Assembly: GCA_045598305.1 (NCBI GenBank)
Contig: JAZLLW010000031.1
Span: 939 to 64,938, forward strand
DNA: 64,000 nucleotides
Direction of reading: 5' to 3'
Origin: Acutalibacteraceae bacterium
GTDB lineage: Bacteria > Bacillota > Clostridia > Oscillospirales > Acutalibacteraceae
In this document: positions 4,313 through 32,398 of the stretch, piece after piece
Position numbering within the stretch: position 1 is the first letter of the stretch
How the letters are laid out: every line of letters begins with the position of its first letter
Made by a program: the position numbers and the translations under genes
The notes under the pieces: model-generated
Told to the model about the DNA's origin: nothing
Database searches by the model: none
The model's input: only the letters and a program-made list of their open reading frames with translations

Positions 4313-5905
4313 TCAGCCGTTAAGGGCCTTGAATGCCTTTTTGTTGTTGGCATAGAGAGTCTTGTAAACTTCAAAGTTCTTGTCGTAGACGGGCTTGTTT
4401 GCGGGATCGGGCTTGAAGGTCTTGGTCGCTCTGACGAGCTTCTTTGCTTCCTCAACCTCGTTGATTACGCCCAGACCTACCGCCATGATGACTGCGGCAC
4501 CGACAGCACCTACGTTCTGGGGACTTTCAACGGTTTCAATCGTTCTGCCCGTAACGTCCGCGAGAATCTGGCAGGTAACGTCGCTGAGCGCACCGCCGCC
4601 TACGAAGCGGACGACGTCGGAGGTCTTCGTCTTCTTATCCTGGGTCTCAATGAACCACCGCATGTGGAAGCATACGCCCTCGATAACGGAACGGATGAGC
4701 TCCGTCTTGCCCGTATCAAGACTGATGTTGAAGAACATTCCTCTTGAGTTGGGGTCTTCAAAGGGACAGCGGTTGCCGTGGAGCCAGGGAGTGAAGATAA
4801 CACCGTTGCTGCCTGCGGGAGTTTCGCTGATTACCTTTGACAGATAGTCGTAAAGGGAGGTGTAAACGGCTTCCTTTGACTCTGCAACGTGTTTCTTTTC
4901 AAGGTAGATGCCGATTTCGTCAAGAGCAAGGTGGTCCTTTACCCATTCAAGGCACTTGCCTGCGGTTTCAAGCTCTGCGAAATAGACGAATTTGTTTTTC
5001 TGAGCGCCTACTATGGCGGCAATCATTGCGGAGGTATCAACGATACTCTTGTCAACTACGGTGCCTACCCAGCCGGAGGTGCCCTGATAGATGTGGGTGT
5101 CGCCCATACCTACCGCGCCTGCGCCTACGCCGATGAGGGAAGCGTCACCGCCGCCGCCGAATACAGCCGTACCTTCAACGAGACCGAGCTCTTCGGCTGC
5201 CTGCTTCGTAAGGCCGCCTACCTTGTCCGTTGAGTCAATGACGTCGGGAAGGTGATTGAAGTCAACGCCGAGAATGTCGCACATCTTCTTGCTGAAGCAC
5301 TGCTGCTTGTAATCGTAAAGGAGAGTGCCAAAGGCAGAGTCCTTTGTCATAACGAATTTGCCTGTCATACGGGCAATGAGGTATTCCTTGACGTCAAGCC
5401 ACTTGTGAATCTTCTTGAAATTCTGCGGCTCGTTATCCTTTACCCAGTGATATTTCCATACGGGGTCCTTGACGGAGCAGGAAACCGCGCCGGTGATCAT
5501 AAGAGAGGGAAGAAGCTTTGCAATGTTTGCGCCCGCTATCTGGGGACCGTATGCCATACCCTCTTTTATCTGCTTTGTAGCGCGCTGGTCCATATAGCTG
5601 AATGCTCTGTGAACGGGCTTGCAGTCCTTATCAACAAGGACAAGGCCCTGCATCTGCGAGCAGAATGAAATACCTTCGATCTGTTCGGGTTTTACGAGGT
5701 CTGTCTGAGAAAATACCTTTGCCGTCGTATTGCAGAGAGCGTCCCACCATTCATCCGGGTCCTGCTCTGCTCCTCCTCCGGGAAGAACGTAGAGCTGGTA
5801 GCCCTGCATGGCTGCGGAAATAAGCTTGATTTCATTTTCAATTTCAAAAATGCAGGTTTTTACGCCGGTGGTACCGATATCATAGGAAATAACGTATTTT
5901 TTCAT
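4313..5905 (-). CDS. FGGY-family carbohydrate kinase (xylulokinase/glycerol-kinase-like, substrate unknown)
   Basis: The ORF track gives 4313..5941. I prefer the internal start MKKYVISYDIGTTGVKT at 5905, which is preceded by GAAGGAGG. It has the FGGY N-terminal DIGTTGVK motif and the C-terminal GGGA motif. Confidence 0.85.
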   Translation of the reverse strand: MKKYVISYDIGTTGVKTCIFEIENEIKLISAAMQGYQLYVLPGGGAEQDPDEWWDALCNTTAKVFSQTDLVKPEQIEGISFCSQMQGLVLVDKDCKPVHRAFSYMDQRATKQIKEGMAYGPQIAGANIAKLLPSLMITGAVSCSVKDPVWKYHWVKDNEPQNFKKIHKWLDVKEYLIARMTGKFVMTKDSAFGTLLYDYKQQCFSKKMCDILGVDFNHLPDVIDSTDKVGGLTKQAAEELGLVEGTAVFGGGGDASLIGVGAGAVGMGDTHIYQGTSGWVGTVVDKSIVDTSAMIAAIVGAQKNKFVYFAELETAGKCLEWVKDHLALDEIGIYLEKKHVAESKEAVYTSLYDYLSKVISETPAGSNGVIFTPWLHGNRCPFEDPNSRGMFFNISLDTGKTELIRSVIEGVCFHMRWFIETQDKKTKTSDVVRFVGGGALSDVTCQILADVTGRTIETVESPQNVGAVGAAVIMAVGLGVINEVEEAKKLVRATKTFKPDPANKPVYDKNFEVYKTLYANNKKAFKALNG

Positions 5906-5961
5906 AGGGTGACCTCCTTCATTTTCGGGCAAAATTCGCATTTTACCGATTATAATACACC

Positions 5962-6004: not shown

Positions 6005-6033
6005 ACAAAAAAGCCCGCGGTCTTTCCGCGGGC
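6005..6033 (-). terminator. Rho-independent terminator ending the 13.9-6.0 kb operon
   Basis: Stem GCCCGCGG (6013-6020) pairs with CCGCGGGC (6026-6033). On the reverse strand it is followed by TTTTTTGTT. It sits 11 nt after the symporter stop. Confidence 0.7.
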
Positions 6034-6043
6034 AGATTCATCT

Positions 6044-7477
6044 TTAATTTTCGGCAGACGCTTCTTTTTCGGCTGCTCTGTGCACGTTGAGTTCCTCGTG
6101 CATGACTTCAAGATTTTTCTTGCCGAATTTATATCCGAAGGCGAGCGTGACGAACATAATGAGCAGGGTGATTGCGGGAACGAGGGTGGAAATATCGTAA
6201 ATCTTTGACAGAACGGACGCACTCTGCTGAATGCCGCTTGAGGCGAGCTCCGAATCGTAGCCGATTTTTTCAATCAGCAGGGCGGTACCCGTACCCGCAA
6301 GGGTCTGACCGAGCTTGCGCATGAAGGTGAATACGGAGTAGCAGGTGCCTTCCTCGTGTCTGCCGGTACGAAGCTCGTGATAGTCTATGACGTCCATAAC
6401 GAGCGCCCATACTTCAAGAACGAGGAACGTCATTCCCGCTCCGCTGAGGAAGCAGGCGGCAAGGAATACATAGGGGTTTGCCGCAAGGGAGGTGCCTCTG
6501 ATACCGAAGGCAATGAAGTTTGCGAGTGCGGAGAAGGCAAGTCCAGCCGAGCAGATTTCCTTTTTGCCGAAGCGTCTTATCAGCTTCGCCATAAACGGAA
6601 CGAAGAGAGCCATGGGCAGATAGGTGCTGACGGTGACGAAGGTGTAAAGACCGCCGTTGCCGTAAACGTTGTCAAACAGATAGTTGTAACAGGTCTGGGT
6701 GTAATACTGATAGGCGATGAGAAGCATGGAAACTATGCTGACAACGATGAATTCCTTGTTGCGTACAAGGTCTTTTACCGTTTGGAAGAAATTGTAGTTT
6801 CCGTCCTTCTGTGCGGCGGAAACCGTAACTCTTTCCTTTGTCATCCTGAAGTGGATGAAATAGGTCAGAGCAGAGAAGACGGAGAGCAGGATTACCGCGA
6901 CAAACAGCTTGTTGCCGTCAAAGCTCTTGACACCCGTATTCTCATTGGTGGAGTAAACGATCATGGGCAGTATTATCTGTCCGGGAAGACCGCCGAGGCC
7001 GGCGCCGATGGAACGCCATAAGGAAAGGGATGAGCGTTCGATTTCGTCATCCGTAATAACCGATGCAAGTGAGCCGTAGGGGATATTGGTGCCCGTGTAC
7101 ATCATGCCGTAGAAGATATACGTGACGGCGGCGAGAATGACCACGGTTATGGGGTTTCCGTTCTTGAGGAAGGGAGCAAACATAAGTACCGAGGCAATGG
7201 CGTAAGGAATTGCCGCACCTAAAATGTAGGGGCGGAAACGGCCGTGCTTCGTGGGCTTCCTTGAATCAACGAACGAGCCCCAGATAGGGTCGTTGATTGC
7301 GTCCCAGATTCTTGCCACGAGCAGAAGAATAGCCGCGTGACCGCCTGACATGCCGAGGAAATCCGTGTAGAATTTCATCTGGAAGGTGGTGACTACCGCA
7401 TTGGTCAGCAGACCTGCGGTATCGCCGAGAGCGTAGCCGACTTTGTCTTTGAATTTGATGCCGTGTGTACTTTCCAA
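6044..7477 (-). CDS. Glycoside-pentoside-hexuronide (GPH):cation symporter family transporter (YihO/MelB-like)
   Basis: 477 aa, about 12 TM segments, with a GPH-type N-terminus (KVGYALGDTAGLL...FYTDFLG). Confidence 0.85.
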   Translation of the reverse strand: MESTHGIKFKDKVGYALGDTAGLLTNAVVTTFQMKFYTDFLGMSGGHAAILLLVARIWDAINDPIWGSFVDSRKPTKHGRFRPYILGAAIPYAIASVLMFAPFLKNGNPITVVILAAVTYIFYGMMYTGTNIPYGSLASVITDDEIERSSLSLWRSIGAGLGGLPGQIILPMIVYSTNENTGVKSFDGNKLFVAVILLSVFSALTYFIHFRMTKERVTVSAAQKDGNYNFFQTVKDLVRNKEFIVVSIVSMLLIAYQYYTQTCYNYLFDNVYGNGGLYTFVTVSTYLPMALFVPFMAKLIRRFGKKEICSAGLAFSALANFIAFGIRGTSLAANPYVFLAACFLSGAGMTFLVLEVWALVMDVIDYHELRTGRHEEGTCYSVFTFMRKLGQTLAGTGTALLIEKIGYDSELASSGIQQSASVLSKIYDISTLVPAITLLIMFVTLAFGYKFGKKNLEVMHEELNVHRAAEKEASAEN

Positions 7478-7492
7478 AGTAATCTCTCCTTA

Positions 7493-8224
7493 TTATTTGA
7501 TGAGCAGGGATATTCCGCTTATGAGCATAAGCACGTAAGTGAGCTGAAGGAAGAAGCTCCGGCTCATTTTTTTACAAATCAGATTGCCGACAACCAGCGC
7601 CGCCGCAAGCGCCGCCGTTGAAACGGCTGCAAGCTTTACTGTAGATAGGGTAAAATATCCGTCGTGGATATCCGTGGCGAAAATAATGCCGTTGAGCAGT
7701 ACCCACACAAGACTCAGAGTGCCGCGGAAGGTATTCTTGTCCCTGATTTTACCGCTTGCGTAGGTTACCAGCAGAGGGCCGCCGCATACGAACATTCCGT
7801 GTACGATGCCGCCTATGACCGCCAGAGGGACGGCAACGGGCTCCGGGAGGGGCTTGTCATCTTTTCCCGTATAGAATTTTATTGCGTTCATCACGGCGAA
7901 AACGATGACGGTAACGCCGAGAATAATATAGAGCAGAGAGGGATTTCCCGAGAAATATCTCTTGAGAAAAATTCCCGCTGCCATACCAATGAACATGAGC
8001 CCCGCCATTTTGCCGAATTCTTTTATATCAATGCTTTTGCGGCAGACGATAACTACGTATACCGATGCCAGAAGACCCAGCAGATTGAGGATTGAACGGG
8101 CGGAGTCAAGACCTATGAGCCGTATGGAAAAGGGCATTGCGAGTACCGTACCCGCAAATCCCGTTATGCATTGGATTATGTTTGTAAGGAATACCGTTAC
8201 GAGAAACAGGATTTTCGGGAGCAT
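7493..8224 (-). CDS. TauE/SafE (TSUP, DUF81) family anion exporter
   Basis: 243-aa polytopic membrane protein with the typical TSUP N-terminus (ITGFAGTVLAMP). Its ATG shares one nucleotide with the stop of the upstream isomerase gene. Confidence 0.8.
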   Translation of the reverse strand: MLPKILFLVTVFLTNIIQCITGFAGTVLAMPFSIRLIGLDSARSILNLLGLLASVYVVIVCRKSIDIKEFGKMAGLMFIGMAAGIFLKRYFSGNPSLLYIILGVTVIVFAVMNAIKFYTGKDDKPLPEPVAVPLAVIGGIVHGMFVCGGPLLVTYASGKIRDKNTFRGTLSLVWVLLNGIIFATDIHDGYFTLSTVKLAAVSTAALAAALVVGNLICKKMSRSFFLQLTYVLMLISGISLLIK

Positions 8225-9567
8225 CAGTATTCAAGCACCTCTGTTCCCAGCATATTTCCGAACGCTCTGATACGGGAAGCGATACCGTCGGAGGCAATTA
8301 CAAAATGGGGCTCCCAGCCGTCCTTTACGGCGTTTTCCACAAGGTCTTTTGCGGGTCCGTCCGTTCTGACTACCACGGAAGTGCCGTTGAACTGCTTGGG
8401 CTTGTCAAGTGCTTTGCCCGATGAGAGGAAAAACCTGAACGAGCCGTCGGGATTCCTGCCGATTCTGAAAATCGTTACCTTATCGACGGCTTTACAGCCG
8501 AAATCAAGCGTGGGACCGATTTTTCTGTTGCAGTGAAGACCTGCGCAGGCACCCGTATCCTCCCTTGCCATGGAGCAGGGAGCCATACCGCAATGCCAGA
8601 AGGTGACCGTGTTTTCTTTTTCGTCAAGGGAAACGGGGTCGCCGAAGAATACGCTTCTGCCCGAAAGGAAGGAAGCCGCGAACATTGATAGCGCGCCGTA
8701 GGAATCCGCTTCGCAGGCGCAGGGAATACCCAGGTCGTTGAGTATGCCGAGCACCGCACATACGGGAGTGCCGAAGGCGGTAAAGAAATCGGGCCAGCAT
8801 CTTGATGCGAGAGCACCGATGTTGTTTTCCTTCACGTAGTCGGAATATGCCTTGTAAAGACGGGCAAAATCCGAAACGTTTTGCGGATCGATTTTATCAA
8901 GACCGCAGATTCGCTTTTCCGCATCCGAAAGATAGGGTGCGATATCGTCGTCTGTAAAGGCTTTTGCCTTGTCAATCAGTTCTCTTGCCTCTATTGACTC
9001 CGCCGTAACGCCGAACGCTTTCAGCATATCAAGGTCAAGCGCTCTGCCGAAGCCGAAGCCCTGCGGAGTATGTCCGATCTGGGCAAGCTTCAGCCCCCGC
9101 ATTGCCTTCTTTAACCTTGCGGCATCAATGACCGCGGAGATTTTTTCTTTTACTTCGTCCTCATCGGGAGAGCCGAAAACGTATTCAAAATTCCTGCCGA
9201 AGCCCCGCAGAGTATTAGCCGCCGAAAACGCACCCGTAAGGGAATTGAGACGAAGCCGCGTGCCGTCAATCACGGGCTCACGGAGAGTCCAAAGCAGCAC
9301 CGGGCAGTCAAGGGAAGTGAGAATTTCACTCATATAGGCGGCGTTTGCAAAGGTGAGATTCTGCACGATTGCAAGGTCGGGCCTGAGGGATGAAATATAC
9401 GCTTTGAGCTTATCAACGGTAAGCAGCATTTCGTCGGGAAAGACAACGCACGGGTCAAGCTCCTTCAGCAGAGAAATACTGTCTTCAAAGGCCTTTCCGG
9501 CGCTTTCAAGATGAAACGTGCCGACACCGATCGGTATATATGCGGATCTGAAATCCATCATTATCAC
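8224..9567 (-). CDS. L-fucose/L-arabinose isomerase-family sugar isomerase (substrate unknown)
   Basis: 447 aa with the motif RCWPDFFTAFGTPVCAVLGILNDLGIPCACEADSYGALS. This matches the metal-site region of FucI/AraA-like isomerases. It is a paralog of the gene at 23438..24907. Confidence 0.75.
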   Translation of the reverse strand: MIMMDFRSAYIPIGVGTFHLESAGKAFEDSISLLKELDPCVVFPDEMLLTVDKLKAYISSLRPDLAIVQNLTFANAAYMSEILTSLDCPVLLWTLREPVIDGTRLRLNSLTGAFSAANTLRGFGRNFEYVFGSPDEDEVKEKISAVIDAARLKKAMRGLKLAQIGHTPQGFGFGRALDLDMLKAFGVTAESIEARELIDKAKAFTDDDIAPYLSDAEKRICGLDKIDPQNVSDFARLYKAYSDYVKENNIGALASRCWPDFFTAFGTPVCAVLGILNDLGIPCACEADSYGALSMFAASFLSGRSVFFGDPVSLDEKENTVTFWHCGMAPCSMAREDTGACAGLHCNRKIGPTLDFGCKAVDKVTIFRIGRNPDGSFRFFLSSGKALDKPKQFNGTSVVVRTDGPAKDLVENAVKDGWEPHFVIASDGIASRIRAFGNMLGTEVLEY

Positions 9568-9568
9568 C

Positions 9569-10423
9569 TTACTCGTTTACAATTTTATAGGTTGACCTGA
9601 AATCGTCCTTGCCGAGACCTTCCTTCATGCCTCTTTCGTAAACGGAGAGGATGTTGTCAAGTCCGGGCATAAGCATATCCTGCTCGTCTGCAAGACGGCG
9701 GCAGATATTCAAGTCCTTATTTTCATTTTCAAGAGAAAATGCGGTAGTCCAGTTTTCGTTTTTGAGATTTTCCTTCTGGGATTCAAGGTAGAAATTGCCT
9801 GCACCGCCGTAGGAAACCGCCGTAGCGAAATCGTCAACGGAAATGCCGAGCTTACGGGCAAGTCCCAGAGTTTCGTTTACGCCGTTCTGAATCTGACCGA
9901 CAAGGCAGTTGTGACAGATTTTCATGGCGATGCCCTTGCCGTTTTCACCCATGCGGATAATGTTGCAGCCCATGTATTTCAGTATGGGTTCTATAACGGG
10001 GAAGAGCTCTTCGTCACAGCCGGCGAGAATGCCGAGAGTACCGTTGATTGCGGCGGGCTTTGACTTGACGACGGGGCAGTCCGCAAACTGCGCGCCCTTT
10101 GCCTTTATCATTCCCGCACATTCAAGGGAAACGGAGGGATCAATGGTGCTCATATCAATGCAGATTTTACTGCTGTCAATGTAGGGCAGAAGCTCGGTGT
10201 AAACCGCTTTGACGTGCTCCGATTTGGGAACCATCGTGATAATGACGTCGGCGTTTTTTGCCACCTCGATATTGTCCTCGCAGGGGATTCCGCCGAGACC
10301 TGCCAGCTTTTCCACCTGCGCCTTGTTGATGTCGGAAACGAAGACCTTGTCATCGTGTTTTTTGATAATGTTTTCGCTCATGGATTCGCCCATGATACCA
10401 AGTCCGATAAATCCGATTTTCAT
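9569..10423 (-). CDS. NAD(P)-dependent beta-hydroxyacid dehydrogenase family reductase (HIBADH/YihU/GarR-like)
   Basis: 284 aa with the Rossmann motif MKIGFIGLGIMG and a 6-PGDH-type C-terminal domain. Confidence 0.85.
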   Translation of the reverse strand: MKIGFIGLGIMGESMSENIIKKHDDKVFVSDINKAQVEKLAGLGGIPCEDNIEVAKNADVIITMVPKSEHVKAVYTELLPYIDSSKICIDMSTIDPSVSLECAGMIKAKGAQFADCPVVKSKPAAINGTLGILAGCDEELFPVIEPILKYMGCNIIRMGENGKGIAMKICHNCLVGQIQNGVNETLGLARKLGISVDDFATAVSYGGAGNFYLESQKENLKNENWTTAFSLENENKDLNICRRLADEQDMLMPGLDNILSVYERGMKEGLGKDDFRSTYKIVNE

Positions 10424-10435
10424 AGTATTGACCTC

Positions 10436-11122
10436 TTATTCGGTGATTGTATTGTCCCATGCCGACCGGAATTTTGCCAGACCGTAATCGGTGAAGGGAT
10501 GATAGAAGCTGTCCTTGAATACCTGAAGACCTGCGGTCACGATATCCGCGCCCGCAACTGCGCAGTCAACTATCTGCTTGCCGTTTCTTACTGCGGCACA
10601 TATAATTTCCGTCTTGCCGAGGAAACCGTAATTTCTGTAAATCTCAACTATATCGCTGATGTACTGAACGCAGTCCTCACCGCTGTTCTCTTTCCAGCCG
10701 ATGAAGGGGGAAACGAAGAGAGAATTGTTCTTTCCCGCGATAAGTGCCTGGGAAGCGGAGAAAACGAGGGTAAGGTTGGTACGAATGCCTTTCTTTTCAA
10801 GGCGTCTTGCGGCGGTAATGCCCGCTTCGGTGCAGGGGATTTTGATTACGAAGTTACTGCACATAGCCGATATTTTCTCTGCCATGGCGAACATTTCGTC
10901 CGCATCGTCAAGGTGGGGATTGATTTCAACGGAAATGGGGAAAACGTCCCAGCCCTCAATGCCCTTTTCCTTTACGAAATCCGCAAGTTCCGCGATAACG
11001 GTGTAAAAGGGCTTGCCGCTGTTCATGATATGATTGGGATTTGTGGTGATTCCGTCGATTCCGAAGGTGTCGTATGCCTCGCGGATCTCGTCGATTTTTG
11101 CACTGTCAAGAAAGTATTTCAT
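10436..11122 (-). CDS. Transaldolase / fructose-6-phosphate aldolase family (subfamily 3B, about 220 aa)
   Basis: 228 aa reading MKYFLDSAKIDEI...DGITTNPNHI, with the Schiff-base lysine context FVIKIPCT. Confidence 0.85.
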   Translation of the reverse strand: MKYFLDSAKIDEIREAYDTFGIDGITTNPNHIMNSGKPFYTVIAELADFVKEKGIEGWDVFPISVEINPHLDDADEMFAMAEKISAMCSNFVIKIPCTEAGITAARRLEKKGIRTNLTLVFSASQALIAGKNNSLFVSPFIGWKENSGEDCVQYISDIVEIYRNYGFLGKTEIICAAVRNGKQIVDCAVAGADIVTAGLQVFKDSFYHPFTDYGLAKFRSAWDNTITE

Positions 11123-11134
11123 CTTTATCTCTCC

Positions 11135-11827
11135 TTAAAGCTTTTCAAGTATTTCGGGGTGCTGAGTAAGGTCGTATCTCTTATAGCCGTCATTCGCGTC
11201 AAAGAACCATACCCTCGCATCCGGTCTTTTGGGTGATATCTTAACGGAATATTTACCGTCAATATAGCATAATGCGGTATCGTTTTCGCAGGCGATAGTG
11301 GAGAGAGCGGTCCTGTCGGCATATTCGTCAAACTGATGCCAGAAAGCACCCTCGTAATGGGGAACATTATTGTAGGGAATGATGTCGGTGCAGTCAACGA
11401 ACATGAAATCGCCTCTCGGACCGCAGTCGTCAAAGCCCTGTCTGAACCAGCACATGCTGCCCGAGGATTCGCCGAAAAGCACCTTGCCCGCGTCAAACGC
11501 CTCTCTGAGATATTTGATTACGCCGGTCTTTTTCCAGGTTTTCAGACAGAAATTGAGGTTGCCGCCCGGAACGTGAATCACGTCTGCCCAACGGATTTTT
11601 TCCGCGATCAGCTCCTCCGTGATATATGGATGAGTGAGATAGAGAACATCCGTATCACAGCCCATTTTGCTGTATCTGCCCACGTCGCAGGGGCTTGAAT
11701 CGTAACCCGTTGTGGGGATTTCAAGATAGTTGGGATATTCTTTGCCTGAAAGACCCATTATGTATTCCGCAAAGTCCCATGCGTATTCGTCTCCGAAACC
11801 GCCGCCGATAGCTATTATTTTACCCAT
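11135..11827 (-). CDS. Peptidase S51 (dipeptidase E/cyanophycinase-like) family serine hydrolase
   Basis: The ORF track starts at 11863. I prefer MGKIIAIGGGF at 11827, one nucleotide after the GH31 stop. It has the nucleophile-elbow-like motif GESSGSMCW. Confidence 0.7.
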   Translation of the reverse strand: MGKIIAIGGGFGDEYAWDFAEYIMGLSGKEYPNYLEIPTTGYDSSPCDVGRYSKMGCDTDVLYLTHPYITEELIAEKIRWADVIHVPGGNLNFCLKTWKKTGVIKYLREAFDAGKVLFGESSGSMCWFRQGFDDCGPRGDFMFVDCTDIIPYNNVPHYEGAFWHQFDEYADRTALSTIACENDTALCYIDGKYSVKISPKRPDARVWFFDANDGYKRYDLTQHPEILEKL

Positions 11828-11828
11828 G

Positions 11829-13847
11829 TCAGAACTCCTTTGCTGCTTTTTCAAATATTTCAAGGGCTTCGGGGGAAGCGTTCTTTCTGTAAAACGCCGC
11901 GGGTGTGCCGACGGGGGCTTTGACCGTGTGCTTTCCGCCCTTATATTCTTTTCCCGTTGAAAATTCTATCCATTCGTCATCGGGAAGATAAACGTTCTTT
12001 TTATTCGTGTCCGGTCTTAAAACGGGAGCAACGAGTATATCCCTGCCCAGCAGGTATTCGTATGCCAGCACCTTTGATGCCTCGTCGTCATAGTGGAAGA
12101 AGAGGGGTCTTATAACGCCCGTACCCTTTTCGGCATTCTGCCTTACCGCTTCTCTGATATACGGCTTGAGAGCACAGTGTATCCTGCTCATTTTTGCCTG
12201 ATGCTCAAGGGTTTCGGAGCTTGCGTCAAACTGGGCGTTCAGATCGGGATTGTTGCCCTCGTGACTTCTCATAACGGGTGAAAATACATTCATTTCGCAC
12301 CAGCGCATATACAGCTCCTCGTTTCTGCACATCTTGCCGAAGGTGGTATATCCGCCTATATCCGAATGACTCAGACCGTAACCGCTGCAGGTGAGGGAAA
12401 GGGATGCTGGAATGACGGACGGCAGACCGTTATCCATGGAAAAGTCCACGTGATTGTCGCCGTTCCACATCATCGTGGAGTATTTCGGCGTTTCGGTGAA
12501 GCCCGCTCTGGTAAAGAACATTGTTTCGCCGAGCTTTCCGCTTTCCTCAACGACCTCTCTGTTGAGCTTCGCCCATCTTGCGGGCCATGTATTGTGGGCA
12601 AGCTCGGGGTCTTCGCCGCTGTAAAGCACACAGTCGGTGGGCAGATATTCGCCGAAATCCGCCATCCAGCCGGACAGACCGAAATCTATCATGTTTTCTT
12701 TAATCTTCTTTTTAAGCCAATCCCACGCATCGGGATTTGTCAGGTCAACTATCGCGGCGGGGAAGGTGGTGATGGTAACGAGATAATCGCTGCCGCTTTT
12801 ATCCTTTACGCAGTAGCCCTTTTCGGCGGCTTCCTTATACATCGGTTTTTCAATGGCAAGGAAGGTGTTGCAGTAGCCGAGTACCTTGATGTTCTTTGCG
12901 TTCAGCTCTTTTATCGCTTCGGGAAGACCGGGATAAAGCTCCCTGTCCCATTCCCAGTTCCATTGGAGCTGTTTGCCGAAGGCGGTCACACGTCTGCCCT
13001 CCCAGTCCTGAATCCAGACACCCGCGACCCTTGTGCCGTGTTCAAGGCAGGCGTTCACTTTATTCATCATTATTTCCGTGCCGCCCTGAATGCCGAGAAT
13101 CACGCCGTCATAAACCCAGTCGGGAAGCTCGGGCTGTCTGCCCAGACGCGCCGTAAGGCATTCCATGACCTCCTCAAAGCTGTCGCCGAAGCCGATTTCA
13201 AAACCCTCGACACAGTCAAACTTGAGGCGGTGATATTTTTTATCGGTAAAATCAAATTCGCATCTTGAAGTCGCAGAGGAATGAAAGCTGTATTTACGGC
13301 TTGAGAGGAAGGTCGGCTGGGCGTAATAGGTTTCGTAGGTTTCAAATTTGTTTTTGCGTTTGCCGTTGCGAAATCCGAGAGTGACCTTGGTAATCTTTTT
13401 TGATATCATTTTCGCATTCTGATGCTCGGCGACCCAGATGTTTGCCTTATGACCTCTCAGGTCAAATTCGGTGAAGGTTTCGCCCGTGCCGTAGATATGC
13501 TCCTTTTCGTCTGCGGGGAGGGAAATCCAAAGGCGGTTGTAGGCGGAAAGTTCGTAAAAATCCGCTTTCAGACTGTTTCCGTCAACGGAAAGGACCGCGC
13601 TGCCCTCCGTGAGCGAAATCTCCGCACGGTTACCCGACAACAGAATATCCCTAACGAAAAGGGGCTTGCGGCAGTATATTTTTTCTTTGATGGTGAAGCT
13701 GCCTCTGTCCATTTTGTAATTGTTTTCGCCGTAGCCGGTTTCAGCAGCGATTTCACCCTGCCGGAGTGTGAAAACGGGGGAGGAATTACGAAGAAGCACG
13801 AGCGCTCCGTCCGTTATTGCAAGTTCAACCAAGAAACACACCTCCAT
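11829..13847 (-). CDS. GH31 alpha-glycosidase, YihQ (sulfoquinovosidase)-like subfamily
   Basis: 672 aa with the nucleophile context GWMADFGEYLP, the acid/base context WNGD, and HSDIGGY. An alternative TTG start at 13832 lies behind a GGAGG box. Confidence 0.85.
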   Translation of the reverse strand: MEVCFLVELAITDGALVLLRNSSPVFTLRQGEIAAETGYGENNYKMDRGSFTIKEKIYCRKPLFVRDILLSGNRAEISLTEGSAVLSVDGNSLKADFYELSAYNRLWISLPADEKEHIYGTGETFTEFDLRGHKANIWVAEHQNAKMISKKITKVTLGFRNGKRKNKFETYETYYAQPTFLSSRKYSFHSSATSRCEFDFTDKKYHRLKFDCVEGFEIGFGDSFEEVMECLTARLGRQPELPDWVYDGVILGIQGGTEIMMNKVNACLEHGTRVAGVWIQDWEGRRVTAFGKQLQWNWEWDRELYPGLPEAIKELNAKNIKVLGYCNTFLAIEKPMYKEAAEKGYCVKDKSGSDYLVTITTFPAAIVDLTNPDAWDWLKKKIKENMIDFGLSGWMADFGEYLPTDCVLYSGEDPELAHNTWPARWAKLNREVVEESGKLGETMFFTRAGFTETPKYSTMMWNGDNHVDFSMDNGLPSVIPASLSLTCSGYGLSHSDIGGYTTFGKMCRNEELYMRWCEMNVFSPVMRSHEGNNPDLNAQFDASSETLEHQAKMSRIHCALKPYIREAVRQNAEKGTGVIRPLFFHYDDEASKVLAYEYLLGRDILVAPVLRPDTNKKNVYLPDDEWIEFSTGKEYKGGKHTVKAPVGTPAAFYRKNASPEALEIFEKAAKEF

Positions 13848-13861
13848 AATACAATTAACTT

Positions 13862-13890
13862 ATTATATAGTGCGCGGGAAAATAATTCAA
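13862..13890 (-). promoter_or_regulatory. Sigma-A-type promoter of the GH31 operon
   Basis: The reverse strand reads TTGAAT (13885-13890), exactly 17 nt, then TATAAT (13862-13867). Confidence 0.55.
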
Positions 13891-22001: not shown

Positions 22002-23435
22002 TTATTCATCAATAACCTTTGCGGCTTGGTATAACTTCAGGTATTTCAGGTATTTCTTTTCATAAAAATCCGTGAGAGATTTGTCGGGGCGGATTGTTTC
22101 CCTTGTACCGTAAAAAGCGGGAGAAATATCCTTTCCCGTTCCCTTTGCCGCAAGAATGCACGCACCGAGTACGCCTCCGTGCTCAAGCAGGGGGATTTTG
22201 ATATTTATATCCAGCACGGTTGCCGTCAGCTGAGTCCAGAAAAGGCTTTTTGTACCGCCGCCGCAGATACCCGATTCGGTTATATTCACGCCGAGGGATT
22301 TTATGATTTCAACATTCTGTTTAAGTGAAAAAGCTACACCCTCAAGCACCGCAAGAGCCATTTCCTCCCTTGTGGTGTTCATGGAAAGACCGTAAAACAT
22401 ACCTCTTACTTTTGTGTCGTTTACGGGGGAGCGTTCACCCATAAGATAGGGCAGGAAAACGACGTCGCTTTTGCCTGCATACCGCTTCACTTCGTCGCTG
22501 TAATCGGTTTTGAGTATATCCTCAATCCACCATTTGTTGCATGATGCGGCGGTGAGAGTGCAGGCGAGGTAATGATATTTTCCGTTTGCGGAGCAGAAGG
22601 AATGAATGGCATTCTCTCTGTCGCAGTTGAATTTATCCGAGCAAACGAAAACCGTACCCGAGGTGCCGAGCGAAATGTTGCAGTCGCCGTCGCTGACGGC
22701 TCCCGTTCCGATTGCCGAGGCGGCATTGTCGCCGGCACCGATGACGATTTTAACCTCATCAAAGCCAAGCTCCTGCGCTATTTCCTTTTTCAGATTGCCT
22801 ATCGGCTCATAGCTTTCAGATACCTTCGGAAGCTTATCCTCGGATATATGGCATATTTCAAGCATTTCGTCTGACCAGCATCTGTTTTTCGTATCAAAGT
22901 AGAGTGTGCCTGCCGCATCCGAGGTGTCAGTTGCAAAAACGCCCGACATCATATACGCAACGTAATCCTTGGGCAGACAGATTTTTTCCGCCCTTGCGAA
23001 ATTTTTCGGCTCGTTATTGTAAACCCAGAGAAGCTTGGGCGCGGTGAAGCCGGCAAACGCTATATTTCCCGTTTTGTCAAGCAGGAAATCCCTGCCGATT
23101 TCATCGTTAAGGAAGGAAACCTCCTTTTCGCTCCTGCCGTCATTCCAGAGGATGGCGGGGCGGATAACCTTATCCTCTTTGTCAAGCATAACAAGGCCGT
23201 GCATCTGACCGGAAAAGCTGATTGCCCTTACCTCGCTTTTATCAATACCGGCGGTGAGCTCTTTTATTGCGTCAATGCTTTCACCGTACCAGTCTTCGGG
23301 ATTCTGTTCCGACCATCCGCTGTGGGGAAAGGAGAGAGGATAATCCCTTGATACCGTGCCGATTATTTCGCTGTCGCTTGTGAGCATCGCCTTAACCGAG
23401 GAGGTGCCCACGTCAAGTCCGATATAGTAATTCAT
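22002..23435 (-). CDS. xylB: Xylulokinase-like FGGY kinase
   Basis: 477 aa reading MNYYIGLDVGTSSVKAML, with the FGGY C-terminal GGGTKS motif. Confidence 0.8.
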   Translation of the reverse strand: MNYYIGLDVGTSSVKAMLTSDSEIIGTVSRDYPLSFPHSGWSEQNPEDWYGESIDAIKELTAGIDKSEVRAISFSGQMHGLVMLDKEDKVIRPAILWNDGRSEKEVSFLNDEIGRDFLLDKTGNIAFAGFTAPKLLWVYNNEPKNFARAEKICLPKDYVAYMMSGVFATDTSDAAGTLYFDTKNRCWSDEMLEICHISEDKLPKVSESYEPIGNLKKEIAQELGFDEVKIVIGAGDNAASAIGTGAVSDGDCNISLGTSGTVFVCSDKFNCDRENAIHSFCSANGKYHYLACTLTAASCNKWWIEDILKTDYSDEVKRYAGKSDVVFLPYLMGERSPVNDTKVRGMFYGLSMNTTREEMALAVLEGVAFSLKQNVEIIKSLGVNITESGICGGGTKSLFWTQLTATVLDINIKIPLLEHGGVLGACILAAKGTGKDISPAFYGTRETIRPDKSLTDFYEKKYLKYLKLYQAAKVIDE

Positions 23436-23437
23436 AA

Positions 23438-24907
23438 TTACCCCCAGGGATTTTCGGTAGGATATCTGACCTCTTTCGGCTGATTATATCCGATATCTGA
23501 TACACCGAAATATCTGAATACCTCATAGAGTGCCTTTCCGCAGTGTGAGAATGCGACCGCACCGTGATGAGGGAATTTCTTTTCAATGAGAATATGACGG
23601 TAGAATCTGCCCATTTCGGGGATGGCGAATACACCTATACCGCCGAAGGAACGGGTGGCAACGGGAAGTACCTCGCCTTGGGCGATATATGACCTGAGAT
23701 TGCCCTCACTGTCGCATTGCAGACGGTAGAAGGTGATATCCGAGGGAGCTATATCTCCCTCAAGAGTGCCTCTCGTGAAGTCGGGCTCGCTTCCCGCGGG
23801 CTCAAGCAGTCTGTGCTGAATGAGCTGATATTTTACACCGCAGCCGTCACACATCTTGCATGACGGAGTGTTTCCGCAATGGAAGCCCATAAAGGTATCT
23901 GTGATACCGTAATTGAATTTTCCTTTGATATTTTCTTCATAGATGTATGAGGGAACGGAATTGTTGATATCAAGCAGGGTGACCGCATCTTTTGTTACGC
24001 AGGCACCGATATATTCCGAAAGAGCGCCGTAAATATCCACCTCGCAGGCAATGGGGATACCCTTTGAAGCAAGGCGTGAATTGACGTAGCAGGGTTCAAA
24101 GCCGAACTGCTCGGGGAATGCGGGCCAGCATTTATCGGCAAAGACGACGTACTCTCTGTCGCCCTTGTGTGCGTCTGCCCAGTCAAGGAGAGTCAGCTCA
24201 AAGCGTGCCATTCTCTCAAGCATATCCTCATAAACGTTTTTGCCCATTTCGGCTTTCATTTCTTCAATGATTGCGTTTACTCTTGAGTCGCCTTTAAGTG
24301 CATTATATGCAACGAGCAGGTCAAGCTCGCTGTTTTCCTCAATCTCAACTCCCAGCTCGTAAAGTCCCTTTATGGGGGCGTTGCAGGCAAAGAAATCCTG
24401 GGGTCTGGGACCGAAGGTGATGATTTTAAGATTTGAAACACCGATGATTCCTCTTGCAACGGGGATAAATTCCCTTATTATTGAGGCGCATTCATCAGCC
24501 GTACCGACGGGATATGAGGGAATGTAAGCCCTCAGATGACGCATACCGAGATTGTATGAGCAGTTGAGCATACCGCAGTAGGCATCGCCTCTGCCGTTTA
24601 TCATATCTCCGTCACCCTCTGCGGCGGCAATCACCATTGAGGGACCTCTGAATTTCTTTACGAGGAGTGTTTCGGGAGTTTCGGGACCGAAGTTACCCAG
24701 GAATACGACGAGCGCATTTACGCCGTGGGCTTCAATGTCGGCTATTGCCTTTGCTGCGTCCGCTTCATTTTCAACGGTTACGGGGCATTCATAGAGTCCT
24801 TCACCGAATGCTTTGACTATATTTGCTCTGCGCATTTCGGAAAGTGCGATGGGGAAGCAGTCACGGGAAACTGCGATTATGCCGGGCTTTACTGACGGAA
24901 TATTCAT
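23438..24907 (-). CDS. L-fucose/L-arabinose isomerase-family sugar isomerase (second paralog)
   Basis: 489 aa with the motif KCWPAFPEQFGFEPCYVNSRLASKGIPIACEVDIYGALS. The same signature appears at 8224..9567. Confidence 0.8.
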   Translation of the reverse strand: MNIPSVKPGIIAVSRDCFPIALSEMRRANIVKAFGEGLYECPVTVENEADAAKAIADIEAHGVNALVVFLGNFGPETPETLLVKKFRGPSMVIAAAEGDGDMINGRGDAYCGMLNCSYNLGMRHLRAYIPSYPVGTADECASIIREFIPVARGIIGVSNLKIITFGPRPQDFFACNAPIKGLYELGVEIEENSELDLLVAYNALKGDSRVNAIIEEMKAEMGKNVYEDMLERMARFELTLLDWADAHKGDREYVVFADKCWPAFPEQFGFEPCYVNSRLASKGIPIACEVDIYGALSEYIGACVTKDAVTLLDINNSVPSYIYEENIKGKFNYGITDTFMGFHCGNTPSCKMCDGCGVKYQLIQHRLLEPAGSEPDFTRGTLEGDIAPSDITFYRLQCDSEGNLRSYIAQGEVLPVATRSFGGIGVFAIPEMGRFYRHILIEKKFPHHGAVAFSHCGKALYEVFRYFGVSDIGYNQPKEVRYPTENPWG

Positions 24908-24919
24908 AATAACCTCCGG

Positions 24920-26986
24920 TTACAGTTCAATTTCAATTTTCTTTTTCATTGCATCCTCTGCATCCTGACCGATGTAGAGGGTGTATTTCTTCTCATTGTA
25001 GGTTGATTTTGTCGCGGGATCGTAAAATGCAAGACGGCTGAGCGGAATCGAAAGAGTCACTCTCTGACTTTCGCCTGCCGCCGCAAGTACCTTTTTGAAG
25101 CCCTTGAGCTGTTTTACGGGGTGGTCACCCTCTGCGCCCGCATAGACCTGAATGACGGTTTTGCCGTCTCTGTCGCCCTTGTTTCTGACTGTAAGGGAGA
25201 CCCGCACCTCGTCTTTTACGACCTTTGCGGTTACCCTCTGATAGTCAAATTTTGTATATGACAGACCGAAGCCGAATGGGAAGGATGCGGCTTTGCCTTC
25301 CTTGTCAAGAAGGGTATAGCCGTGGTAATAGCCGTAAAGCATATCCCTCTCTTTGCTTCCGGGGAAGAGGAACGGGGGATAATCGTCTTCGTCTTTTGCA
25401 ACGGTAAAGGGCAGATGACCCGAGGGGTTCACGTTGCCTGCGATGATATCCGCAAGCGCGTTGCCGCCCTCCATACCGCCGTAAAACGAATGAAGGATTG
25501 CGCTGACGCTGTCCTTCCATTCGTCAATTACGTAGGCACTGCCGCCGATTATATTGACGATAACGTTTTTGCAGGATGCGACGGCGTGACGGATGAGAGC
25601 CGTTTCGTCCTTTGAAATACGCAGGGAGTATCTGTCTCCGCCCATACCCATTTCGGCTACGTCGTCGTTTTTGGTGAAGTTGGCGAGATTTTCGCCCTCC
25701 TGCTTATAGTCGCTGCCTACACAGATGATTACCGCATCGCACTTCTTGATTTCGGATTCCTTGGGAGTAAGACTCGTTCCCTCAAGAAGCACCACGTTGT
25801 TTTTGCCGAAAACGTTGCAAAGACCCTCGTAGGGTGTGACGGTGTACGGGCTGTAAACGGAGCTGGAGCCGTGGTCACCGACGTTGATTTTATCTGCATA
25901 TCTGCCGACTACGGCAACCTTCATTGATTTGTCAAGAGGAAGCAGACCGTCGTTTTTGAGCAGTACCGTTCCTTCTGCCGCGGCTCTGCGGGCAAGGGCG
26001 GTGTGCTCTTTGCTCGCAATGACGGATTTGTCGGCCTTTTTAAGCTTCGGATTGATTTTTATCAGGCTCCTCAGAATGCTCTGAACGGAGGAATTTATGT
26101 CATCCTCGGATACCTTGCCCGCCTTCAGATTGAATGGCAGAGTGGCATAGTGCATTATCTGGGGCATTTCGATATCAAGACCCGCCTTCAGCGCCTTGGG
26201 AGCATTTCTGACACCCATAAGAAAATCGGAAATGGTAAAGCCCGTAAATCCCCATTGGTCACGCAGGATATCTTTGAGCAGATATCTGCTTTCACAGCAG
26301 TGATCTCCTCTGAAAAGATTGTATGCGCCCATGATTGACATTGCACCCGCGTCGATGCACGCCTTGAAATGAGGCAGATAAACCTCATGAAGGGTGATTT
26401 CGTCGCAGTTGACGTTAACGTCAAAGCGGATGTTTTCAATGCTGTTGAGAGCGAAGTGCTTGGGGCAGGCGATAACGCCCTTATCCTGCACCGCCCTTGT
26501 CAGAGCAGCGCCCATTTCGGAAAGGAGATACGGGTCTTCGCCGTAGGTTTCCTGAGCTCTGCCCCAGCGGGGATTCCGCAGCAGATTGATGCAGATACCC
26601 GCAAAGTAGTTTCCGCCCTGAGCGGTGACCTCGTCGGCGATGGCGGAGCCGATTTCGTATTCAAGCTCGCTGTCAAAGGATGCACCTCTGAGCATGGAAA
26701 CGGGGAAACAGGTGCTTTTACCCATTACGCATCCTCTCGGGCCGTCGGAGAAAGCAACCTCGGGGATTCCCAGACGCTTTACGCCGCCCGCGATGCAGGG
26801 ACGGCAGTTATATTTCTGACCGTTGACGAAAAGGTCGTAGCCGTTTCTGATAAAAAACTGCCTGCCCGAAAGCATACCCAGTTTCTCTTTCAGCGTCAGC
26901 TCGCCGCACAGTTTTTCCGCGGCATCGTAAAGACCTTCGTCGGTGGGGTTTTCGCTGTAATATTTAACGGCATCATCAAAATTCAT
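24920..26986 (-). CDS. GH3 beta-glucosidase/beta-xylosidase (no signal peptide)
   Basis: 688 aa carrying the GH3 motifs SDGPRG and KHFALNS, and the nucleophile context GFTISDF. Confidence 0.9.
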   Translation of the reverse strand: MNFDDAVKYYSENPTDEGLYDAAEKLCGELTLKEKLGMLSGRQFFIRNGYDLFVNGQKYNCRPCIAGGVKRLGIPEVAFSDGPRGCVMGKSTCFPVSMLRGASFDSELEYEIGSAIADEVTAQGGNYFAGICINLLRNPRWGRAQETYGEDPYLLSEMGAALTRAVQDKGVIACPKHFALNSIENIRFDVNVNCDEITLHEVYLPHFKACIDAGAMSIMGAYNLFRGDHCCESRYLLKDILRDQWGFTGFTISDFLMGVRNAPKALKAGLDIEMPQIMHYATLPFNLKAGKVSEDDINSSVQSILRSLIKINPKLKKADKSVIASKEHTALARRAAAEGTVLLKNDGLLPLDKSMKVAVVGRYADKINVGDHGSSSVYSPYTVTPYEGLCNVFGKNNVVLLEGTSLTPKESEIKKCDAVIICVGSDYKQEGENLANFTKNDDVAEMGMGGDRYSLRISKDETALIRHAVASCKNVIVNIIGGSAYVIDEWKDSVSAILHSFYGGMEGGNALADIIAGNVNPSGHLPFTVAKDEDDYPPFLFPGSKERDMLYGYYHGYTLLDKEGKAASFPFGFGLSYTKFDYQRVTAKVVKDEVRVSLTVRNKGDRDGKTVIQVYAGAEGDHPVKQLKGFKKVLAAAGESQRVTLSIPLSRLAFYDPATKSTYNEKKYTLYIGQDAEDAMKKKIEIEL

Positions 26987-26997
26987 ATCTGTACCTC

Positions 26998-29463: not shown

Positions 29464-29472
29464 GGTATCACC

Positions 29473-30612
29473 TCAGAAGCTGCCGCAGAAAAATGTATTT
29501 TTCTGCGGGAATGCTTTGTACAAATCGGGATTATTGTTTATGATTTCAAGTCCGTTCAGATACGGGGCATCATCTGGACTTATTCCGCACAGGAAAATTT
29601 TTGACATCGCGAAGCTTTCCATAACGAAATCGGGGCTGCCGTCACAGTCTGTCAATGTGTGACCTCCGTCTCCGTATTCAAGGAAAAAGGTACCGCTGTT
29701 GGCGGAAACGGTGTCGTTCACCCTAAATGTGAAGCCGCCTTTTTCAAGAGGCCAATCCACTTTGCCGAGGACGTTTTTAAGATTGATTATCCTTATCGCA
29801 CCCGTATTCTGCAGCTGCCGCTTTGCATTTCCCTCATTGACGAGATAGCGGATTATCGGGGAGGAGAGAGGGAGCATCGTAAATCTGATGAGCGGAAGAT
29901 TGCTCTCATACTGCCTGAGATAACCAAGCAGATTCAGCATGGCTTTCTTATCTTCAAAGCAGATTTCGGACACCTCAAGCGTTTCCTCGCTTCTCTTTAC
30001 GGAAAAGCTCACCATACCGTCGGGTCTGCCGTTTTCGTCAAGGGACAGATAAGTGTAATCTGGCGTGTCAAAGGGCTTAAGGTTAAAGAATCCGCCGTCT
30101 TTTCTTTCATAGGCCAGATTGTACCGGGAAGCAAGACGGTTATATACCTCAAGCAGCTCTTCAAGGTTATCCTCCCGGACGCATTTCACTCTGTCGGAGC
30201 AGGGGATAAAAGCGAAATTATCCGCACCCGTTTCAAGAGATATGAAATCCGCCGAGGTTTCGTATCCGAATTTCCTGTAATACGACGTGGAGAAGGGATG
30301 GAGTATGCTTATATCGTAACCGGATTCAAAGAGCTTATTGAAAAGGGCACGCACCGTGCCTTTGTGTCTGTACTGAGGAAGAGTCGCAACGCCTCCCACT
30401 CCCGCACAGCGAAGCTTACCCTTTCCGTAAAAGCAGGTATAGTCGTTGACCTCGATTTGTGACATAAGAGTCTTATCGTCGTCTGCAAACGCCGCGAGTA
30501 TTTCGTAGGGGGGCATCGTCATATCATCGGCTGTGATTTCTCCGCCGAAGGACTGAACGGCACATTCCGCCGAAGCACGCAGGTCCTTTTCCTCAACTTT
30601 TCTGATTATCAT
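29473..30612 (-). CDS. GNAT-family N-acetyltransferase, Eis-like (GNAT plus SCP2-like C-terminal domain)
   Basis: I prefer the start MIIRKVEEKD at 30612, downstream of the MFS terminator. It has the acetyl-CoA motif LPQYRHKGTVRAL and is about 380 aa long. Confidence 0.7.
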   Translation of the reverse strand: MIIRKVEEKDLRASAECAVQSFGGEITADDMTMPPYEILAAFADDDKTLMSQIEVNDYTCFYGKGKLRCAGVGGVATLPQYRHKGTVRALFNKLFESGYDISILHPFSTSYYRKFGYETSADFISLETGADNFAFIPCSDRVKCVREDNLEELLEVYNRLASRYNLAYERKDGGFFNLKPFDTPDYTYLSLDENGRPDGMVSFSVKRSEETLEVSEICFEDKKAMLNLLGYLRQYESNLPLIRFTMLPLSSPIIRYLVNEGNAKRQLQNTGAIRIINLKNVLGKVDWPLEKGGFTFRVNDTVSANSGTFFLEYGDGGHTLTDCDGSPDFVMESFAMSKIFLCGISPDDAPYLNGLEIINNNPDLYKAFPQKNTFFCGSF

Positions 30613-30635
30613 ATAAACATCACCACACTGACGGT

Positions 30636-30677
30636 TTTTATTTTCAAAATGCGGCTGCCGCAAAATGCAGCAGCCGC
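30636..30677 (-). terminator. Probable rho-independent terminator after the MFS gene
   Basis: Stem GCGGCTGC (30651-58) pairs with GCAGCCGC (30670-77). On the reverse strand it is followed by ATTTTGAAAATAAAAA. Confidence 0.5.
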
Positions 30678-30690
30678 AGACACAGTTATA

Positions 30691-32211: not shown

Positions 32212-32398
32212 ATTATTTCTCCTTAGATTGCGGCGCACATTCGCCGAGTATAAAAACATTATATCATCACTTATATAATTTTTGAATACTACAATATGAA
32301 CTAAAAAATAGGATATTTTTTATACAACTTGTCTAATCAAAAATTTGCAAGTTTGTGATATAATCCCTTGCATAGATTCGGATACAGGAGGACTGATT

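Follow-up and report, generated by a model that had tools for sequence, protein, structure and literature searches.

A YihQ-like GH31 enzyme of an Acutalibacteraceae bacterium, probably a sulfoquinovosidase with a remodelled Gln/Thr sulfonate pocket

Degraders of sulfoquinovose (SQ), a plant sulfosugar with an output of ~10 gigatonnes a year (PMC10755693), are usually recognized in genomes by their sulfoquinovosidases (SQases) of glycoside hydrolase family 31 (GH31). The prototype of these enzymes is YihQ of Escherichia coli (Protein Data Bank (PDB) entries 5AED, 5AEE, and 5OHT), and the other solved SQases are AtSQase of Agrobacterium tumefaciens (5OHS/5OHY), SftG of Eubacterium rectale (6PNR), and BmSQase of Bacillus megaterium (8R56). 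A preference of more than 1000-fold for SQ glycosides has been reported for YihQ and AtSQase. For three SQases, kcat/Km values near 1e5 M-1 s-1 are listed in Table 1 of PMC11968277. In their gene clusters, SftG and BmSQase are accompanied by SftT, SftI, SftR, and an exporter, with an additional kinase in E. rectale (PMC11968277). The present analysis concerns a GH31 gene in a 64,000-nucleotide stretch of DNA from an Acutalibacteraceae bacterium, an uncultured member of the herbivore-gut Clostridia (assembly GCA_045598305.1, contig JAZLLW010000031.1, positions 939–64,938 of the forward strand), which is referred to below as the window and to which all coordinates refer unless another locus is named. 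The gene is located at 11,829–13,847 on the complementary strand, and its 672-amino-acid (aa) product, assigned from the open reading frame (ORF) and homology, is a YihQ/SftG-like putative SQase of a Gln/Thr pocket type. The sulfonate triad of YihQ, Arg301-Trp304-Tyr508, is incomplete in this protein, where Trp296 and Tyr500 are kept and the Arg is replaced by Gln293. We consider it probable that the protein is an SQase with a sulfonate pocket remodelled around Gln293 and Thr360.

A HMMER search against PDB sequences revealed YihQ (5AED; E = 5e-190), BmSQase, SftG, and AtSQase as the best matches, with E values against the SQases from 5e-190 to 1.6e-154, while the next GH31 enzyme, YicI, was matched at 8e-42. 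The score against NF007746 was 778 bits, with a cut-off of 553. The AlphaFold2 (AF2) model, built from a 40-sequence alignment, had a predicted local distance difference test (pLDDT) score of 94 and a predicted template modelling (pTM) score of 0.93, and the GH31 (beta/alpha)8 fold of the SQase clade could be recognized in it. When the model was compared with the PDB using Foldseek, the top 23 matches were all chains of the four solved SQases with template modelling (TM) scores of 0.87–0.93, followed by YicI at ~0.73. The protein is a member of the SQase clade by phylogeny only and is not a canonical 'RWY' SQase by motif definition. The proteins of the Gln-type clade to which it belongs are at present all named 'alpha-glucosidase'. 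A non-catalytic or decaying homologue, for instance a pseudo-enzyme or a binding protein, is favored only by the missing Arg, which is considered essential. The ORF is intact and first in its operon, the catalytic Asp397 and Asp464 together with ~45 other columns were invariant in alignment A1, and the protein is kept across 80 species at 57–95% identity; such decay is given practically no probability.

The native YihQ sequence of E. coli K-12, taken from NC_000913.3, served as the reference for residue mapping. In the global MAFFT alignment, 657 residues could be aligned, of which 46% were identical. The register across WxQDWxGxRxTxFGKxxxWNW was without gaps in both the MAFFT and the HMMER alignments. 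In both, Arg301 of YihQ corresponded to Gln293 (codon CAG, 12,969–12,971, complementary strand; the forward strand reads ctg), as had been proposed in the initial annotation of the sequence, and the constant offset of -8 with six of seven residues matching, also proposed there, was borne out. The YihQ numbering on which that annotation relied (Q262, Q288, R301, W304, D405, D472, and Y508) proved right against NC_000913.3. The six kept residues, all encoded on the complementary strand, were Gln254 (Q262; 13,086–13,088), Gln280 (Q288; 13,008–13,010), Trp296 (W304, a sulfonate-pocket residue; 12,960–12,962), the catalytic nucleophile Asp397 in GWMADFGEY (D405; 12,657–12,659), the general acid/base Asp464 in WNGD (D472; 12,456–12,458), and the second kept sulfonate-pocket residue, Tyr500 (Y508; 12,348–12,350). 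Trp296 was invariant in alignment A1, as were the two Asp residues. The window enzyme and YihQ share their domain architecture (TM ~0.90), the Asp pair, both Gln residues, and the Trp and Tyr of the pocket, and the pair found at YihQ positions 262 and 288 of SQases, Gln-Gln or Lys-Glu, is present as Q254 and Q280. Arg was found at the 301 site in all four solved SQases (5AED, 8R56, 6PNR, and 5OHS). An Arg285-Arg286 pair is encoded upstream of Gln293 (12,990–12,995, complementary strand), and a shift of register placing one of these residues at the Arg301 site, which had been envisaged at first, is refuted: Arg286 aligned with the conserved Arg294 of YihQ and Arg285 with Ile293, a site that is Lys in SftG and BmSQase. 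The pair as a displaced Arg301 was ruled out by the gap-free HMMER and MAFFT alignments and by the strand pattern of the AF2 model.

Conservation of Gln293 was assessed in two sets of homologues. Among the 120 closest 90%-identity cluster representatives (61–91% identity), all of which were metagenome-assembled Clostridia, including Oscillospiraceae, Acutalibacteraceae, Ruminococcus, Eubacterium, and Faecalibacterium, GKQLxWNW was present in 120/120, following WIQDWEG(R/Q)R. The second set comprised 80 species-level genome loci from GTDB (57–95% identity), originating from rumen, horse, rabbit, reindeer, and human gut, and here Gln was found in 79 loci (71 CAG and 8 CAA) and His in one. Since it is conserved in 120/120 clusters and 79/80 loci, Gln293 is neither noise nor an error. 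Thr360 (codon ACC, 12,768–12,770, complementary strand), which occupies the site of YihQ Gly368, was kept across the 80 loci while all four ACN codons were used. Judging from this codon usage, both Gln293 and Thr360 are under strict purifying selection, and the turnover of CAG and CAA and of the four ACN codons at kept residues therefore suggests a tuned pocket rather than a degraded one. The variant is a fixed trait of a large lineage of uncultured rumen and gut bacteria. The only His locus (CAC), in a metagenome-assembled genome from sheep omasum (L031, JAFWRV010000357.1; GH31 at 1–1617), keeps Thr360 and the full downstream operon. A survey of position 301 across the YihQ clade, suggested in the initial annotation, showed that a Gln clade exists, with genomic neighbors of the sulfofructose-transaldolase (sulfo-TAL, also sulfo-SFT) type, and that more distant Gln-type members occur in a second cluster of this type and in one resembling the sulfo-transketolase (sulfo-TK) type. 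In the wider YihQ-like GH31 clade, Gln at this site was likewise common (86 of the 150 nearest 50%-identity representatives).

Co-variation was analyzed on these 150 sequences, each of which represents a 50%-identity cluster and was matched at an E value of 1e-94 or better. The column tracking residue 293 most strongly was 360 (mutual information 0.65), and the next strongest were its neighbors 358, 359, and 361. Sequences with Gln at position 293 (Gln-type) carried Thr or Ser at 360 in 72/86 cases, whereas those with Arg (Arg-type) carried Gly in 40/48 and Thr in 0/48. The loop at this position reads (D/E)FGEF in the four solved SQases and TITTF in the window protein, and over a wider span (D/E)FGEFY(C/G)G as against TITTFPAA. 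YihQ thus differs from the window enzyme by Arg301, Gly368, and the loop EFGEFYGG, where the latter has Gln293, Thr360, and TITTFPAA. A rough neighbor-joining tree was constructed from the cluster representatives without the columns under test, those of residue 293 and the 360 region, and the Gln-type and Arg-type sequences were intermixed on it. Fitch parsimony on this tree gave 16 Q-to-R and 9 T-to-G changes, and both changes fell on the same branch in 7 instances, compared to ~0.5 expected by chance. It is possible, although we are doubtful, that Gln/Thr represents the ancestral and majority pocket of the YihQ-like GH31 superclade and that Arg/Gly, as this rough tree would have it, arose repeatedly.

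In the AF2 model, residues 285–288 and 291–294 form one pair of adjacent strands, with Arg286 on the first and Gln293 on the second, and Thr360 is placed in the turn between strands 356–359 and 362–367. Automatic alignment with YicI was unreliable in the 360 loop, and the loop was anchored by hand on D(L/F)TNP; in this alignment, Gly368 of YihQ and Thr360 fall at the site of YicI Trp380, which in other GH31 enzymes is a conserved aromatic that lines the -1 subsite in the vicinity of C6. Because of the strand layout in the model and the correspondence to Trp380, Gln293 and Thr360 plausibly face the 6-substituent pocket. The same position of Thr360, at a site where a Trp would presumably form part of the -1 subsite, together with the remodelled loop, could also be taken as a sign of relaxed or shifted specificity, in which the sulfonate would be discriminated more weakly and SQ glycosides would be cleaved along with ordinary alpha-glucosides, or a particular SQ conjugate or aglycone would be preferred. 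Such a shift is highly improbable in our view: the operon, devoted to sulfo-TAL, contains no genes for the catabolism of neutral sugars, and the selection on Gln and Thr is strict.

The neighboring strands of the model also suggest that Arg286 lies near Gln293, which would suit an SQase in which the charge has been relocated, with Arg286 or Arg285 pairing with the sulfonate and Gln293 acting as a spectator or orienting residue. Position 286 was Arg or Lys in 88% of the Gln-type sequences, and WEGRR was invariant in the close clade. The same position was, however, Arg or Lys in 83% of the Arg-type sequences and thus does not compensate for the change at 293. Position 285 was variable, being Gln in a Gln-type homologue with 50% identity (P0122) and Lys in the Arg-type SftG and BmSQase. 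The mutual-information scan of the 150 sequences revealed no basic residue tracking position 293, only columns 358–361. A relocated charge is therefore regarded as unlikely.

The GH31 gene is, by gene order and family matches, the first gene of a sulfo-TAL operon, whereas YihQ serves the Embden-Meyerhof-Parnas type of sulfoglycolytic pathway (sulfo-EMP). On the complementary strand, it is followed by a Peptidase_S51-family gene, a transaldolase, a beta-hydroxyacid dehydrogenase, an SftI-like isomerase, a TauE/SafE exporter, and a GPH/MFS_2 symporter. The transaldolase (10,436–11,122) is an orthologue of sulfofructose transaldolase (SftT), with 67% identity to BmSF-TAL, the solved enzyme of B. 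megaterium (8BC3; E = 4.5e-91), while ordinary transaldolases were matched at 1e-43 at best; it was present in 66/80 loci at 79–98% identity. The dehydrogenase (9,569–10,423) is, by family match, a putative SftR-like sulfolactaldehyde (SLA) reductase, found in 59/80 loci. The isomerase (8,224–9,567), a homologue of the SQ isomerase SftI with the fucose-isomerase fold, was present in 63/80 loci, and its sole NCBIfam match, covering the full length, was NF048012 (SftI; E = 2.6e-116). Family matches further identified a TauE/SafE-family anion exporter (PF01925; 7,493–8,224; 50/80 loci), putatively exporting 2,3-dihydroxypropane-1-sulfonate (DHPS), and a GPH/MFS_2 glycoside:cation symporter (6,044–7,477; 51/80 loci), which is a putative importer of SQ or SQ-glycerol. 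Transaldolase, reductase, and isomerase occurred together in 43 of the 56 related loci having at least 8 kb downstream.

Related Gln-type loci show comparable surroundings. DUF4867 (SftX) could be found in 42/80 of them and a ROK regulator in 29/80. In many sister loci, the SftX gene separates the reductase gene from the isomerase gene, and the ROK gene stands between those for TauE and the transporter (compare L032, 10,013–18,955). Five loci (L015, L016, L018, L019, and L028) had the GH31 and transaldolase genes only, without an adjacent isomerase or reductase; in L018 (10,007–14,409), the sole one of these looked into, an MFS transporter follows the transaldolase, possibly indicating a split or reduced pathway. 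Outside the close clade, the gene for P0122 of Clostridium sp. DL1XJH146 belongs to a second sulfo-TAL cluster, which is made up of TauE, ROK, transaldolase, reductase, isomerase, MFS, and DUF4867 genes. The GH31 gene of another Gln-type homologue (P0121, 54% identity; L082, 387–12,016) is the closing gene of a cluster in which a split transketolase, RpiB, DUF4867, and a fucose-isomerase-like gene are accompanied by a xylose-isomerase-like triosephosphate isomerase (TIM) barrel protein, an ABC transporter, and a GFO/IDH/MocA oxidoreductase, a gene set that resembles the sulfo-TK pathway. The enzymes P0133 and P0136 (Spirochaetota, Athalassotoga) adjoin SftI-like isomerases and transporters. 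Since the Arg-type SftG of E. rectale works in the same pathway, both pocket types appear to serve the same downstream chemistry.

The initial annotation had left two readings side by side, namely a variant sulfonate pocket, or a glycosidase for a neutral or differently charged 6-substituted alpha-glucoside, in which case the whole operon would catabolize that sugar and not SQ. The former is supported by the conserved sulfo-TAL operon and by Gln-type enzymes in a second sulfo-TAL cluster and a sulfo-TK-like cluster. The latter could draw on the loss of the canonical Arg, on a reductase and an isomerase that do not reach the curated YihU and SftI cut-offs, and on a distant Gln/Thr clade outside sulfoglycolysis clusters, yet it leaves unexplained a transaldolase that shares 67% identity with a validated sulfofructose transaldolase and is distant from ordinary ones, the TauE-family anion exporter conserved in the operon, SftX in half of the related loci, the Gln-type enzymes in those two other clusters, and the retention of Trp296 and Tyr500. 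A different sugar is thus considered quite unlikely for the enzyme and the operon, and the variant SQase is favored.

The data show the substitution and its conservation, the co-variation, the fold, and the operon context; SQase activity and the mode of sulfonate binding are what we infer from these observations. In the proposed mechanism, SQ-glycerol or SQ would enter via the GPH symporter, and the alpha-glycoside would be cleaved by the retaining GH31 alpha-sulfoquinovosidase in the role of SftG/YihQ, with Asp397 as the nucleophile and Asp464 as the acid/base. The SftI-like isomerase would then produce sulfofructose, from which SftT would move C1–C3 to glyceraldehyde-3-phosphate to give fructose-6-phosphate and SLA; the dehydrogenase would reduce SLA to DHPS, which would be exported by TauE. 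Within the pocket, the Arg301/Gly368 pair of YihQ is replaced by Gln293/Thr360, with Trp296, Tyr500, Gln254, and Gln280 kept. The sulfonate would be held by neutral hydrogen-bond donors, namely the Gln amide, the Trp indole, the Tyr via water, and perhaps the Thr hydroxyl, without an Arg salt bridge, and the conserved Arg286 may be close to Gln293 on the neighboring strand of the model. A precedent for neutral sulfonate recognition within the same metabolism is the SLA reductase, in which Asn174, Ser178, and an amide of the backbone bind the sulfonate and no Arg side chain touches it (PMC8006165).

Several points weigh against a variant SQase. The Arg301-Trp304-Tyr508 residues have been reported as essential in YihQ. 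They are also described as the sulfonate pocket of SQases (PMC8006165; PMC12780224). In the literature, neither published activity data for any Gln-type enzyme nor a report of growth on SQ by a Gln-type organism in culture could be found. The isomerase score of 389 bits against NF048012 is below the equivalog cut-off of 700. The reductase has 31% identity to E. coli YihU, with His171 and Val175 at the YihU positions N174 and S178. The window operon is without SftX. Finally, a large, distant Gln/Thr clade of ~750-aa proteins (~730–770 aa; relatives of P0182 in Pseudomonadales, Moraxellaceae, Marinobacteraceae, Desulfobacterales, Haloferax, and Rubrobacter, among others) has the signature Q-Q-Q-W-D-D-Y, usually with Thr at 360, and no sulfoglycolysis genes were present near its GH31 genes on two long contigs (L090, 9,001–11,214; L091, 9,001–11,265); two further contigs of this clade were too short to inform on gene context. 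Because this clade lies outside sulfoglycolysis clusters, the Gln/Thr pocket is compatible with an SQ context but not diagnostic of SQ specificity.

Further observations concern these same proteins. Some members of the ~750-aa clade are named 'sulfoquinovosidase' by the Joint Genome Institute (JGI). The reductase proved uninformative as an independent sulfonate marker, as N174 and S178 are not conserved and SftR is a different lineage without a structure; the Firmicutes reductase, if genuine, must recognize the sulfonate differently from YihU. No paper on a Gln variant of the SQase Arg or on R301 mutants was found in a search that did not reach Abayakoon 2018 or Speciale 2016.

The remaining features around the operon were also located on the complementary strand. 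A promoter-like site, TTGAAT-17-TATAAT (13,862–13,890; consensus match only), lies just 5' of the GH31 start codon. The Peptidase_S51-family gene (11,135–11,863), an accessory operon member by family match and present in 3/80 loci, encodes a PepE/cyanophycinase-like protein of 242 aa and sits between the GH31 and transaldolase genes; its listed ORF overlaps the 3' end of GH31 by 35 nt, and the likely ATG is at 11,827, 1 nt past the GH31 stop. Just after the transporter gene, a terminator-like hairpin of 8 G-C pairs with a T run (6,013–6,033) could be recognized in the sequence as the likely operon end. An FGGY sugar kinase gene (4,313–5,941), xylulokinase/glycerol-kinase-like but below the equivalog cut-off, is positioned 3' of the terminator and was present in 6/80 loci. 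This kinase could be linked to the operon and may phosphorylate glycerol set free from SQ-glycerol, a role also proposed for the glycerol kinase that the E. rectale cluster encodes (PMC11968277). A second cluster for carbohydrate utilization (22,002–32,259) contains another FGGY kinase, a GH3 glycosidase, an MFS transporter, a lectin-like protein of 821 aa, and an unknown protein of 396 aa, together with a 489-aa Fucose_iso_C isomerase whose gene may be paralogous to the SftI-like one. Neither SftX (DUF4867) nor a ROK regulator was present anywhere in the 64-kb window.

If the Gln-type enzymes are active, Arg301 would not be essential in the right structural context, and if those with Gln/Thr prove to be SQases, a sulfonate would widely be recognized in the absence of the 'essential' Arg. 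A human-gut survey screened GH31 enzymes with a motif from published signature residues and found sulfo-SFT narrowly distributed (PMC8397734); should that motif require Arg, the Gln-type clade would be missed. In a rumen study, YihQ-encoding genomes were mostly Acutalibacteraceae, Oscillospiraceae, and Lachnospiraceae, and pocket residues were not discussed (PMC13219744). With the Gln/Thr enzymes as true SQases, censuses defined by a motif would under-count the SQ degraders of the rumen, gut, and other habitats, and the orphan ~750-aa clade would consist of unrecognized SQases or of enzymes for a related substrate. A confirmed result would improve annotation and the estimates of the flux of DHPS and hydrogen sulfide (H2S) precursors in herbivore guts. 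The Gln/Thr pocket is thus a case in which active-site residues co-evolve although one of the positions had been considered essential.

Among the known systems, SftG of E. rectale and BmSQase, the SQases of Firmicutes sulfo-TAL/SFT clusters, are of the same phylum and pathway type as the window enzyme (TM 0.92–0.93), but they carry the canonical Arg (FGKRL) and Gly (DFGEF), and the identity is ~42%. SftX is described as conserved in the sulfo-SFT pathway (PMC11968277), and the E. rectale pathway includes it, whereas the window operon does not. The same type of finding is provided by an NAD+-dependent family, where a subclade with one changed sulfonate-pocket residue and a loop rearrangement occurs in SQ-type clusters; the protein family and the mechanism differ from those of the window enzyme, and the change there touches a backbone-amide contact and not a charged side chain. 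With respect to the Q/E-RWY motif cited for SQases (PMC12780224), AmSqgH of Alteromonas is a GH31 SQase without it, has no connecting beta-sheets of the YihQ/AtSQase kind, and has a predicted residue set of R302, T377, K412, and F513 (PMC12780224). The RWY motif is therefore not strictly required for GH31 SQase activity. Unlike AmSqgH, the window enzyme is a close relative of YihQ in which only the Arg and its partner loop are changed. A precedent for co-evolving active-site pairs is given by AtSQase, the 'KERWY' variant. The pair concerned, Q262/Q288 versus K245/E270, was reportedly described by Abayakoon in 2018. The variation in AtSQase leaves the Arg-Trp-Tyr triad intact, whereas the window enzyme alters the triad and has a Gln-Gln pair of the E. 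coli type. If the Gln-type enzymes are active, the pairing of Arg/Gly versus Gln/Thr seen in the alignments would be a second example of co-evolving active-site pairs in SQases.

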